Below are positions 1-4,842 of a DNA stretch of 5,170 bases, one piece after another. Position numbers and translations under genes: made by a program. Under the pieces are notes generated by a model. The model was given only the letters and a program-made list of their open reading frames with translations. It was not told the DNA's origin and did no database searches. Positions within the stretch are counted from its first letter, which is position 1; every line of letters starts with the position of its first letter. Source of the DNA: a virus (lineage: Duplodnaviria > Heunggongvirae > Uroviricota > Caudoviricetes); the IMG/VR virus record IMGVR_UViG_2529293043_000022; one strand, 5' to 3'.

Positions 1-623
<623 letters not shown>

Positions 624-2349: not shown

Positions 2350-2370
2350 AATGAATTTTGTGATGCAGTG
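2350..2370. repeat. Left copy of a 21-bp imperfect inverted repeat (19/21 match to the reverse complement of 2481..2501)
   Basis: Plus strand aatgaattttgtgatgcagtg; the reverse complement of 2481..2501 is agtgaattttgtgatgcggtg. Lies 4 nt upstream of the Shine-Dalgarno of the 2334 ORF. Confidence 0.7.
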
Positions 2371-2389
2371 CCTGGTGCCTCCAGGTGAC

Positions 2390-2410
2390 GTTAACCAGTT
2401 AACAATTAAC
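2390..2410. repeat. Three tandem (G)TTAAC motifs at 8-bp period; possible protein-binding site
   Basis: GTTAACcaGTTAACaaTTAAC read directly from the sequence; lies inside the segment bounded by the inverted repeat and next to a CCTGG-tgcct-CCAGG hairpin at 2371..2385. Confidence 0.4.
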
Positions 2411-2480
2411 GCCGGATACAGAGAATCCACCCATAACACTGTTTTTGGTTTTAACTGTTCCGCGTGCGCTTAGCCGCATT

Positions 2481-2501
2481 CACCGCATCACAAAATTCAC
2501 T
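2481..2501. repeat. Right copy of the 21-bp inverted repeat
   Basis: Plus strand caccgcatcacaaaattcact. The pair encloses 110 bp (2371..2480). Confidence 0.7.
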
Positions 2502-2838
2502 TTAAAAAGGGCGGCAGAGCAGCCACGGAGTAAAACTGATACCGCCAAACGTCACCAGAAAATTGATAACAGAGGGCGTTGCAGCGGGGTTGTCACTTAA
2601 GCGTATGGTCAACCTGACAACCCGGTGTCCTCAATGGGGAAGGAATAACCCCGCCATACTTACCGCCGCGCCATTTCGCGGAGTGCCACAACCGGAAGCG
2701 CACGTTCGAAGAAATCTAACGACAAGCCTTCTAAGGGAAAGAGCTTCGCCGTACGCTTTCGCGTTATGCACTGACTTTTCAGGGAAATATCCTTTCAGTA
2801 AACTGTCAGTACCGGATTCTTATCCGTGTCCGGCGCAC

Positions 2839-2872: not shown

Positions 2873-2898
2873 AACCCAGAACCTCAATGGAGGATAAA

Positions 2899-3108
2899 AT
2901 GCCAAACAAAAAAAGAAATCCGCTTATTGAAAAACAGATTGAATGCCTGGTAAATCAACTCAGGCAATCAGGGTTATTAAAAACTCATTCAGAGTTGAGG
3001 CTCACAGAATCAGCATTCGACGATAAATTAAATAATGTCCTTTATAATGGCATTATTGATTTTAATCGTTCTGTTGGTCGCCGCGGCCCTGCTGGTGTTT
3101 CCTTATAA
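2899..3108 (+). CDS. Small hypothetical protein, 69 aa as read; the C-terminal part looks off-frame (see the 3035..3145 feature)
   Basis: Strong RBS: GGAGG at 2889..2893, a 5-nt spacer, ATG at 2899. The ORF-track start at 2887 lacks a Shine-Dalgarno sequence. The last ~20 residues (GIIDFNRSVGRRGPAGVSL) look like a hydrophobic helix read out of frame. Confidence 0.5.
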   Translation: MPNKKRNPLIEKQIECLVNQLRQSGLLKTHSELRLTESAFDDKLNNVLYNGIIDFNRSVGRRGPAGVSL

Positions 3109-3145
3109 TTACCAGTCAATCCAGAGTGGACCGTGTTCAGCGTAA
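3035..3145 (+). CDS. Alternate-frame small hydrophobic ORF, 36 aa (32 aa from ATG 3047): MSFIMALLILIVLLVAAALLVFPYNYQSIQSGPCSA; either an independent membrane peptide or the displaced C-terminus of the 2899 gene
   Basis: In the +1 frame relative to the 2899 ORF the codons spell one clean transmembrane-like helix. No Shine-Dalgarno precedes ATG 3035 or 3047. It overlaps the 3' end of the convergent 216-aa gene by 37 bp. Confidence 0.3.
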   Translation: MSFIMALLILIVLLVAAALLVFPYNYQSIQSGPCSA

Positions 3146-3759
3146 ATATAACTGTACACATCCAGATTATATTTGTGGTCTGTTAAGAACAGGCCGCAAA
3201 TACATGCCGAAGCTTCCAGTGCAGCGGCTCTGTTACTGAATAACCATGTAGCAACATTCCAGCGTTTTTCTGCATCCCAGTCTTTCTCAAGGCCTGATAC
3301 CATGAAGAAACCGTTAGTGTTGCCATCAAATAATTCTGTTTCCAAATTTTTAAGCAATGCCTGATGGACTCTTGCCAGGTATTCCGCCGGAATTTCGCCA
3401 CGAATTCTGATGAGATTGTCATAAACAAACATGTTCCCCGCATATGGCGATTTTTCTTTCTTGTTTTTTAAACCAGCATCATGAGCAAACTGATCAATTT
3501 CTTCTTCCGTTGGTTTCGTATTGATGTTTTGCGCTGTCGTTTCTGCAATTTTATTTGCCACACTCTCTGAGTCGTGTTTATTTATAGACGCACAGAAATA
3601 CAATCCGGTAAACGCATCGCGCACATTACGAGCCATATTATCAGTGTCTTTTTTCGTTACCGATTCCAATTCAAGTTCGTTCAGACGATGACGAAGTGTG
3701 TGTGCTGCAATCTCCTGGATTGAAGGAGGTAAATCTTTAAATTCCATCGTCAACCTCAT
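3109..3759 (-). CDS. Hypothetical protein, 216 aa (212 aa if it starts at ATG 3747), family not recognised
   Basis: ATG at 3759..3757 overlaps the TGA of the upstream small ORF (minus-strand sense TGATG), indicating translational coupling. An alternative ATG at 3747..3745 is preceded by GAGG with a 6-nt spacer. Soluble-looking, with no motif recognised by eye. Confidence 0.75.
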   Translation of the reverse strand: MRLTMEFKDLPPSIQEIAAHTLRHRLNELELESVTKKDTDNMARNVRDAFTGLYFCASINKHDSESVANKIAETTAQNINTKPTEEEIDQFAHDAGLKNKKEKSPYAGNMFVYDNLIRIRGEIPAEYLARVHQALLKNLETELFDGNTNGFFMVSGLEKDWDAEKRWNVATWLFSNRAAALEASACICGLFLTDHKYNLDVYSYIYAEHGPLWIDW

Positions 3760-3992
3760 CAGTCAGTGTTTCTGGCTAACCAGCGACGCGCGCCAGCTTC
3801 AGTTTTAAACGTTTTGCTTTTGGTATACGTCATCGCGGTGAACGTACCGTCCTGGTTGGGGAACACGCCACATACCAGAGATTCGTTGTTGCCAAGATTG
3901 AGCGTATCCATGTTGACCTCATTTCCCCTTAACGCCGGGGTAGCGGAACAAAAACCTGCTGCATAGTTATTAAAGTTGAACCCTGCCGTCAT
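3759..3992 (-). CDS. Small protein, 77 aa from ATG 3992 or more likely 50 aa from ATG 3911; it has the size and position of the small ORFs found next to cI-like repressors in lambdoid prophages
   Basis: The internal ATG at 3911..3909 has the better RBS (minus-strand sense GAGGTCAACATG); ATG 3992 has GAGG with a 9-nt spacer. From memory only, the 50-aa form resembles Rac-prophage-type small proteins (YdaF/YdaG-like); this is unverified. Confidence 0.6.
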   Translation of the reverse strand: MTAGFNFNNYAAGFCSATPALRGNEVNMDTLNLGNNESLVCGVFPNQDGTFTAMTYTKSKTFKTEAGARRWLARNTD

Positions 3993-4203: not shown

Positions 4204-4842
4204 TTAAATATCTTGTTGAATTTTAAAGCATACTCCCAATATGCAAGATAGATCATCCAGCATAATTGAAGGGTAGCGAGGATTCGTGGGGACTAAAAGA
4301 ATATCCGGCCCTTCTATCTCCAGTTTGCGAATGACAGGCGTTGTGGTCCCTTTGGGTAAGGCAAGGACAATATTTCCTGGTTGTACGATTCGATCGGGAT
4401 CAACAAAAACTGTTGAACCATTTGGGATGGAAACTCCACCACCAGATGTCGACATACTGTCACTCTCTAGAACAACAGCAAAGGTATTGGCCGGGATTTC
4501 TCCGACAAGCTGCACACAAGAGGTTATTGAGGAATTTTTCATATAATCACTCCAGCTTGCTGCCTGCTGAAGTGATAGTAGCGGAACCGTTTTTATCGGC
4601 GGTAAAGATAGATCAAGCGAATCACCTGTATTTAACTCTCCTCCATTAAGAAGCCAATTTTCGTTTACTTTCAATATCTTTGCCAGTGAACTTATGTAAC
4701 GCGAGGACGGCGCTCCTCCACCGTTCATCCATTGACTTACGGAGCCTTTTGATGCGCCAGTGGCATTGACAAGGTCTTTGCCTTTCAAGTTTAGCGCATG
4801 CATACGTTGGGTTATGCGTTCAGATATTGTTTGCTTGTTCAT
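4204..4842 (-). CDS. cI: Phage CI-like repressor, 212 aa (N-terminal HTH_XRE plus C-terminal S24 LexA-type autopeptidase domain)
   Basis: The HTH region (...LVNATGASKGSVSQWMNGG...) and the S24 Ser/Lys dyad (Ser129 in ESDSM, Lys173 in VIRKL, 44 aa apart) match lambda CI and P22 C2 architecture. It is divergent from a Cro-like gene. No Shine-Dalgarno upstream; a -10-like TAAAAT sits 6 nt upstream of the ATG, so the transcript may be leaderless as with lambda PRM. Confidence 0.9.
   Translation of the reverse strand: MNKQTISERITQRMHALNLKGKDLVNATGASKGSVSQWMNGGGAPSSRYISSLAKILKVNENWLLNGGELNTGDSLDLSLPPIKTVPLLSLQQAASWSDYMKNSSITSCVQLVGEIPANTFAVVLESDSMSTSGGGVSIPNGSTVFVDPDRIVQPGNIVLALPKGTTTPVIRKLEIEGPDILLVPTNPRYPSIMLDDLSCILGVCFKIQQDI

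Follow-up and report, generated by a model that had tools for sequence, protein, structure and literature searches.

The window, by which we mean the entire 5,170-nt stretch of viral DNA analysed here, covers the early-left (dicBF) operon of a Qin/PPompW-like lambdoid prophage of E. coli O157:H7, and its sequence is 100% identical to that of O157:H7 strains TR01 and Z1812. On the minus strand, a cI-like repressor gene (4204–4842) and a DUF1391/ydfA-like gene (3759–3992) are followed by a 216-aa ORF of the early-left operon that has no Pfam match (3109–3759), and then by ~550 nt without a minus-strand ORF that extend to DicF. The 53-nt form of this sRNA, which includes the intrinsic terminator hairpin, occupies 2509–2561 (placed by Rfam DicF and the K-12 annotation; the Rfam match at 2509–2560 scores 75 bits against a cut-off of 48), and the terminator U-tract lies at 2504–2508. 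The cell-division inhibitor gene dicB (2146–2334, start codon at 2334) was identified by a Pfam DicB match of 125 bits and by the RefSeq annotation of the identical sequence, and is preceded by the Shine–Dalgarno sequence GAGGA (2342–2346). After dicB in operon order come a DUF1482 gene and a truncated exonuclease VIII (recE-like) gene, both also on the minus strand. The truncated gene directly adjoins the transposase fragment (rve domains) of an IS3-family element (window 1–600, 624–1868), and at the corresponding place in K-12 Qin an IS element likewise sits beside a truncated exonuclease. A 73-aa ORF on the plus strand (2887–3108) has no Pfam match and a promoter-like site upstream of it (2871–2900).

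Between DicF and dicB the first-pass annotation had described a 21-bp inverted repeat with two mismatches, bracketing a 110-bp segment. The repeat is real: its two copies, at 2350–2370 and 2481–2501, face each other over 21 positions, two of which are non-Watson–Crick. A repeat search returned the core of this arrangement as arms of 19 nt (2352–2370 and 2481–2499) with 95% complementarity and a spacing of 110 nt. The left arm is separated from the Shine–Dalgarno sequence by 3 nt rather than the 4 nt given earlier. Inverted repeats of this quality (21-mers with at most two mismatches and a gap no longer than 200) number one in the window and none in 200 dinucleotide-preserving shuffles of it.

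The two supposed mismatches are informative about the strand on which the repeat acts. In the minus-strand RNA both are G·U wobbles (G2500·U2351 and G2484·U2367), such that the arms form 21 uninterrupted pairs, 19 Watson–Crick and two G·U, whereas the same two positions read as plus strand are A·C mismatches. Because they become G·U pairs only in the minus-strand sense, we conclude that the repeat acts as minus-strand RNA. Folding of the minus-strand RNA 2345–2506 predicted a structure of −63.4 kcal/mol (z = −6.6) in which a 21-bp closing helix surrounds four hairpins.

The repeat is thus the closing helix, here called P1, of a domain of ~150 nt that contains four inner hairpins and a pseudoknot. 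Both the repeat search and the fold place the 5′ arm of P1 in the right copy of the repeat (2481–2501, minus strand) and its 3′ arm in the left copy (2350–2370, minus strand). Read 5′→3′ on the minus strand, the 5′ arm is followed by an invariant AAU (2478–2480), by hairpin H1 (GCGGCUAAGCGCACGC; 2462–2477, seen in the fold and in alignment A1, described below) and by a segment, J, with the sequence CAGUUAA (2451–2457), which supplies the 5′ half of the pseudoknot. Next is a region, H2, that is hypervariable in length and sequence between lineages (2414–2450). Hairpin H3 (2387–2413, from the fold) has a 10-bp stem and the loop GUUAACU, with the 3′ half of the pseudoknot, UUAACUG, at 2396–2402. 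Hairpin H4 (2371–2385, from the fold) reads CCUGG AGGCA CCAGG with an invariant loop, and closes the interior just before the 3′ arm. The tandem TTAAC motifs and the CCTGG/CCAGG hairpin already recorded inside the segment are both present, the latter being H4; the motifs, at 2391–2410 and 2451–2457, are the stem and loop of H3 together with the single-stranded segment that follows H1.

The 5′ signature GGTGAATGCGGCTNNGCGCACG is carried by at least 120 IMG/VR contigs and by 32 stretches in a set of species-representative genomes; these 32 come from Escherichia, Shigella, Citrobacter, Klebsiella, Raoultella, Enterobacter and Pseudescherichia, plus a few metagenome bins that are apparently mis-assigned. 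An alignment of 36 non-redundant homologues (A1) was examined with the structure taken from the fold of the window. This structure left 89.7% of cells paired, compared with 35–39% when the partners were slid against one another, and 15 pairs carried changes on both sides. The inner 9 bp of P1 are paired in 36/36 sequences, with A-U/U-A, G-C/A-U and wobble exchanges; H3 contributes six covarying pairs; and in H4, a hairpin shared with canonical STnc100, a U-A pair is replaced by G-C in 10 of the 36 sequences. H1 is paired in 100% of cells and shows almost no variation, and its covariation is therefore uninformative. Several junctions and loops are invariant in A1, namely GGUGAAU, ACAGUUAAA, UUGUUAACUGG, GUCACC and AGGCA.

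The outer half of P1 is lineage-specific in sequence, and a long closing helix of 15–31 pairs is retained with unrelated outer sequence in other genera. The dicB type has 21 perfect pairs; the kilR (Rac) type has ~28–31 pairs with one bulge and extends to the terminator U-tract; Klebsiella phage types have 15–28 pairs of quite different sequence; and reading by eye gave ~19–21 pairs, again of different sequence, for Citrobacter, Enterobacter, Raoultella, Klebsiella and Pseudescherichia. In P1/P7/D6 and in the L013-type relatives the closing helix is only 9 bp. Pairing that survives the replacement of sequence, together with wobbles on one strand only, shows the repeat to be a helix of RNA rather than paired sites for protein binding. 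In one class of prophages (L013, 8010–8232; L032, 7135–7329) the element, with a 9-bp closing helix, lies upstream, not downstream, of a DicF-like sRNA, and C4 antisense RNA and isrK are ~3 kb away.

A GTG-initiated ORF on the minus strand (2146–2439) extends dicB in frame across the structured element. The title of a 1988 paper reportedly speaks of dicB translation 'from an in-phase internal start', which the GTG-initiated extension fits. The part of this ORF that lies upstream of dicB has a conservation pattern of the RNA type and not of the coding type.

The J segment (CAGUUAA, 2451–2457) is complementary to the loop sequence of H3 (UUAACUG, 2396–2402), and the two partners change together across the subfamily and the canonical STnc100 relatives (L004, L013, L206 and L318–L397). 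Observed J/H3-loop pairs include AAGGUUG/CAACCUU, UGGUUAU/AUAACCA (in P1 phage), AUCAGCA/UGCUGAU, CUGGUGU/ACACCGG and GCUAGGC/GUCUAGC, as well as an exchange of UAUCAGUAC/GUACUGAUA for UAUCAGCGC/GUGCUGAUA. Since the MAFFT columns were out of register in divergent classes, they were replaced for the pseudoknot by an alignment-free score that compares cognate with non-cognate partners, applied to 49 loop classes with one representative each. The longest helix averaged 7.16 for cognate partners and 5.54 ± 0.17 for permuted ones, and 0 of 5000 permutations reached the observed value. These sequence comparisons support a 7-nt pseudoknot joining the J segment after H1 to the loop of H3. No such interaction appears in the structure line that cmscan reports for STnc100, and the word does not occur in the one paper on the family that was searched for it.

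In total, ~112 elements were recovered together with their downstream genes. Here, 57 precede dicB, 23 precede kilR, seven precede the TerB-like gene tciA in the ban operon of P1/P7/D6, and six precede a Rha-like gene inserted before dicB, the remainder being varied. DicB and KilR are both inhibitors of FtsZ-dependent division. The element always has an sRNA or terminator on its upstream side and a ribosome-binding site downstream, and its 3′ arm lies 30–45 nt from the start codon in the leaders checked. It is carried by 77 of the 78 dicB loci with enough upstream sequence, and in the lone exception a Rha-like gene is joined inside the 3′ arm. A Rha-family regulator gene stands between element and dicB at L314 (IMG/VR) and at loci of the L017 type, with the junction within the 3′ arm. 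Because the Rha junction falls inside it, the 3′ arm acts as a boundary of mosaic modules.

K-12 offers two counterparts of the locus. The orthologue in Qin has the same order of DicF, terminator, element and dicB, and its dicF–dicB spacer, element included, differs from the window at only a few positions; further upstream, the O157 copy has the 216-aa ORF in place of K-12 ydfB/ydfC. The module in Rac is paralogous: the validated, DicF-like sRNA KilS (b4833) ends at a terminator, next to which come the same element and then kilR, with a closing helix of ~28–31 bp and one bulge that spans from the terminator U-tract to an A-run just before the ribosome-binding site. The E. coli dicF–dicB spacer also turned up in two phage records from non-enteric hosts, Aeromonas phage AP1 (MT713136.1, 249962–250142, 99.4% identity) and Actinobacillus phage vB_Apl-pPE4 (PP818812.1, 5840–6004, 87% identity), which may reflect contamination or chimeric assembly.

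The closest described RNA family is STnc100 (RF02076), which corresponds to the Hfq-bound sRNA EcOnc27 (PMC12711010, PMC4104026). The Rfam model aligned over positions 1–206 with the segment at 34.7 bits (E = 6e-5), below its cut-off of 47, and other variants tested gave 33–44 bits; canonical STnc100 from phage 933W, located downstream of stx2, scores 207.7 bits. The helices P1, H1, H3 and H4 and the conserved blocks are nevertheless shared. STnc100 of 933W has the same core of P1 (there GCAUGGUG/CACCAUGC), AAU, H1, J paired to the H3 loop, and H4, and has its own terminator; the GGUGAAU block and an H4 of the form ACC-GGAGGCAC-GGCACC closing onto P1 are common to STnc100 and the dicB element. 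The two differ in the length of P1 (21 bp in the dicB element, 8 in STnc100) and in location, the dicB element lying in the early-left operon, where a ribosome-binding site follows directly, and STnc100 at a moron site of the late region. They also differ in what follows. After the dicB stem no intrinsic terminator of its own was found; the ribosome-binding site follows 3 nt on, and then dicB. In the present subfamily a ribosome-binding site and an ORF come next in 80 of 89 unique variants; of the STnc100-type variants, 42 of 78 lead into a terminator. Because the coupling differs, we refer to the element as an STnc100-like domain and not as a member of RF02076.

A 2026 preprint reports that STnc100 and the PasD sRNAs of EPEC are structural homologues with many RIL-seq partners. 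Taken together, the elements form a large superfamily of pseudoknotted RNA domains in enterobacterial prophages that includes STnc100, and to which PasD probably belongs as well. On three IMG/VR contigs (L322, L339 and L375), two to three matches to a loose STnc100-type 5′ pattern lie within ~0.3–1.5 kb of each other, a spacing that suggests possible tandem arrays of the domain.

We consider it probable that P1 is the downstream RNase III processing stem of the dicBF transcript, which would free the end of DicF, the domain and the dicB mRNA. Helix, strand, conservation, covariation and fixed position come from the present analysis, and RNase III dependence from the literature on K-12. A stem for this enzyme should offer about two turns (at least ~20 bp) of near-uninterrupted dsRNA; P1 has 21 contiguous pairs, and both covariation and the strand-specific G·U pairs indicate that the helix is under selection in the transcribed strand. 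According to secondary citations of Faubladier 1990 (PMC5069750, PMC9438474), DicF has two 3′ ends, one of a 53-nt form made by the terminator and one of a 72-nt form made by RNase III from full-length dicBF RNA. Counting 19 nt on from 2509 puts the 3′ end of the 72-nt form at ~U2490, in the middle of the 5′ arm; this position is arithmetic on those secondary citations, whose passages on the two ends do not name the stem. U2490 lies 11 pairs from the base of the helix and 9–10 pairs from its top, a plausible place for a cut in a two-turn substrate. In an RNA-seq comparison of wild-type and Δrnc cells, position 1649470 ('dicF-dicB') appears as an rnc-dependent site that is flagged as known and has 26 reads; it maps ~8 nt inside the domain, not in the arm. 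A 2023 paper on the operon credits RNase III solely with generating, upstream, the 5′ end of a 190-nt DicF species and does not mention a downstream cut. Downstream RNase III processing has already been described for the K-12 orthologue, and because the repeat matches the site reported there it is in itself ordinary; the link between the K-12 cut and helix P1 is our own mapping.

Another hairpin, imperfect and ~22 bp long, is found on the upstream side of DicF at ~2686–2768 (minus strand) and contains 2698, the position expected for the 5′ end that RNase III gives the 190-nt DicF species. In Rac, the 5′ end of KilS is at the homologous sequence GUGCGC(C/U)UCCGGUUGU, 8 nt from an rnc-dependent RNA-seq site at 1418510.

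According to the proposed mechanism, transcription that reads through the DicF terminator would yield a minus-strand RNA in which the 21-bp helix closes the ~150-nt domain. RNase III, which leaves 2-nt 3′ overhangs, would then cut the two-turn helix near its middle, after ~U2490 on the 5′ arm and before ~A2359 on the 3′ arm; the overhang rule places the partner cut between 2360 and 2359. Such cleavage would give DicF its alternative 72-nt 3′ end, excise the inner domain and release a dicB mRNA with a 25-nt leader. It would probably also free the dicB ribosome-binding site: in the read-through RNA, GAGG (2343–2346) is predicted to pair with CCUU (2507–2510) as an outer extension of P1, and the predicted unpaired probability of the site is 0.04 in this RNA and 0.99 after the cut. 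Partial occlusion of the ribosome-binding site is likewise predicted for kilR leaders, and in several other lineages no occlusion was predicted. We have therefore dropped occlusion as a universal feature and regard this step as lineage-specific. The exact cut positions in the window and the effect on dicB translation are inferred.

The first-pass annotation had offered four readings without ranking them, namely an RNA stem for processing or attenuation, a pair of regulator-binding sites, an invertible promoter switch and a MITE-like insertion. The evidence favours the first, long-range pairing of RNA within the minus-strand operon's leader that serves processing by RNase III; attenuation is unlikely and the other readings are unsupported. 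That the repeat acts at the level of DNA, as an invertible promoter segment, a MITE or an operator pair, is highly improbable. A non-coding 110-bp segment bracketed by inverted repeats would suit such an element, the mosaic homology among phages begins exactly at the left arm, and one insertion junction falls within the 3′ arm; against this, the wobbles are G·U on one strand only, and no minus-strand promoter-like site was detected inside the segment. For a switch, both orientations should occur, and the inverted junction was found in 0 IMG/VR contigs compared with at least 120 for the native one. A megablast search with an artificially inverted middle segment did return 157 genomes at '100% coverage', which direct alignment identified as an artefact of gapped extension at native-orientation loci with a different H2. 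The window also lacks a site-specific recombinase gene, as had been stated at the outset; it holds only the IS3-family transposase fragment, exonuclease VIII, DUF1482, DicB, DUF1391 and the cI-like repressor. Unlike a MITE, the copies are always syntenic, keep one orientation relative to the downstream gene and have no target-site duplication. Paired regulator-binding sites would be expected to keep their sequence; the arms diverge between genera while their pairing persists, and an operator pair is therefore unsupported. Attenuation by an intrinsic terminator would call for an alternative pairing ahead of the termination decision and for a U-run, neither of which is seen here. It is unlikely because transcription reaches the 3′ arm ~130 nt beyond the DicF terminator and because the stem is followed by no U-run and, in our search, by no terminator-like site.

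Two further readings concern the inner domain as RNA. It may be a trans-acting, Hfq-associated sRNA like STnc100/EcOnc27 and PasD, released by RNase III where those RNAs would end at their own terminator, a possibility that we entertain with considerable doubt and that is compatible with P1 as an RNase III stem. All variants match the full length of the STnc100 model (33–44 bits), the P1–AAU–H1–J–H3–H4 core is that of the 933W RNA whose equivalent EcOnc27 is bound by Hfq, the reported homology of PasD and STnc100 comes with many RIL-seq partners, and the conserved loops and hypervariable H2 could serve as seed regions. However, none of the scores reaches the cut-off of 47, the subfamily lacks a terminator and leads in 80 of 89 cases directly to a ribosome-binding site and ORF, the literature searched yielded no transcript corresponding to the excised domain, and no minus-strand promoter-like site was detected near the domain. 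Alternatively, the domain could act in cis as a sensor, in the manner of a riboswitch or through a bound phage or host protein, and set the translation or stability of the toxic gene just downstream, with P1 as the switching helix. The fold is conserved, has several helices with covariation and keeps its junction nucleotides invariant, as a riboswitch would; the pseudoknot covaries to a degree matched by 0/5000 permutations, junctions and loops are invariant, the distance from 3′ arm to start codon is held at 30–45 nt, division inhibitors lie downstream (DicB 57, KilR 23 and TerB/TciA 7 of ~112), and relatives are coupled to either a ribosome-binding site or a terminator. We nevertheless think it distinctly unlikely: a P1 of 21–31 bp is far too stable for switching, no Rfam riboswitch or ribozyme family matched at E < 1, and the downstream genes are not a metabolic set. 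We know of no ligand or binding protein for the domain. RNase III cleavage of P1, the reading that we prefer, cannot be the function of the whole domain, because the closing helix of the P1/P7/D6 and L013-type relatives is only 9 bp. A broader formulation, which we put forward tentatively and as rather unlikely, would make the domain a dedicated control module that acts in cis and binds a protein or ligand, or else a scaffold on which RNases process the RNA, and that gates the toxic moron genes for DicB, KilR and TciA and has the pseudoknot of J and the H3 loop as its essential core.

Both DicF and DicB, made by prophages, halt division of the host cell, and DicF has a further input into virulence regulation in EHEC. 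The time at which a lysogen filaments is decided by how the toxic dicB message is parted from DicF and rendered translatable, and an RNase III cut placed in P1 provides a concrete model for the release of dicB in O157 prophages. The same folded domain precedes kilR, tciA and other genes across the Enterobacteriaceae and is kin to STnc100, an sRNA of Stx phages. With the repeat accounted for, the remaining interest lies in this STnc100-like pseudoknotted domain that stands consistently before division-inhibitor genes, and the supported pseudoknot and the clear boundary of the family make its role approachable.

The arrangement proposed for dicB has a parallel in the RNase III site of the lambda N leader, where an early phage transcript likewise forms a long helix shortly before a ribosome-binding site. 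There, cleavage activates translation of N, whereas the analogous effect on dicB is only predicted. The sites in T7 early mRNA and the stems flanking rRNA provide further comparisons, and none of these, lambda included, is related in sequence to the dicB helix; cleavage of the lambda, T7 and rRNA type separates cistrons, as is proposed here for P1. Unlike those stems, however, the dicB helix encloses a conserved pseudoknotted domain, and the cut assigned to it would also make the 3′ end of an sRNA.
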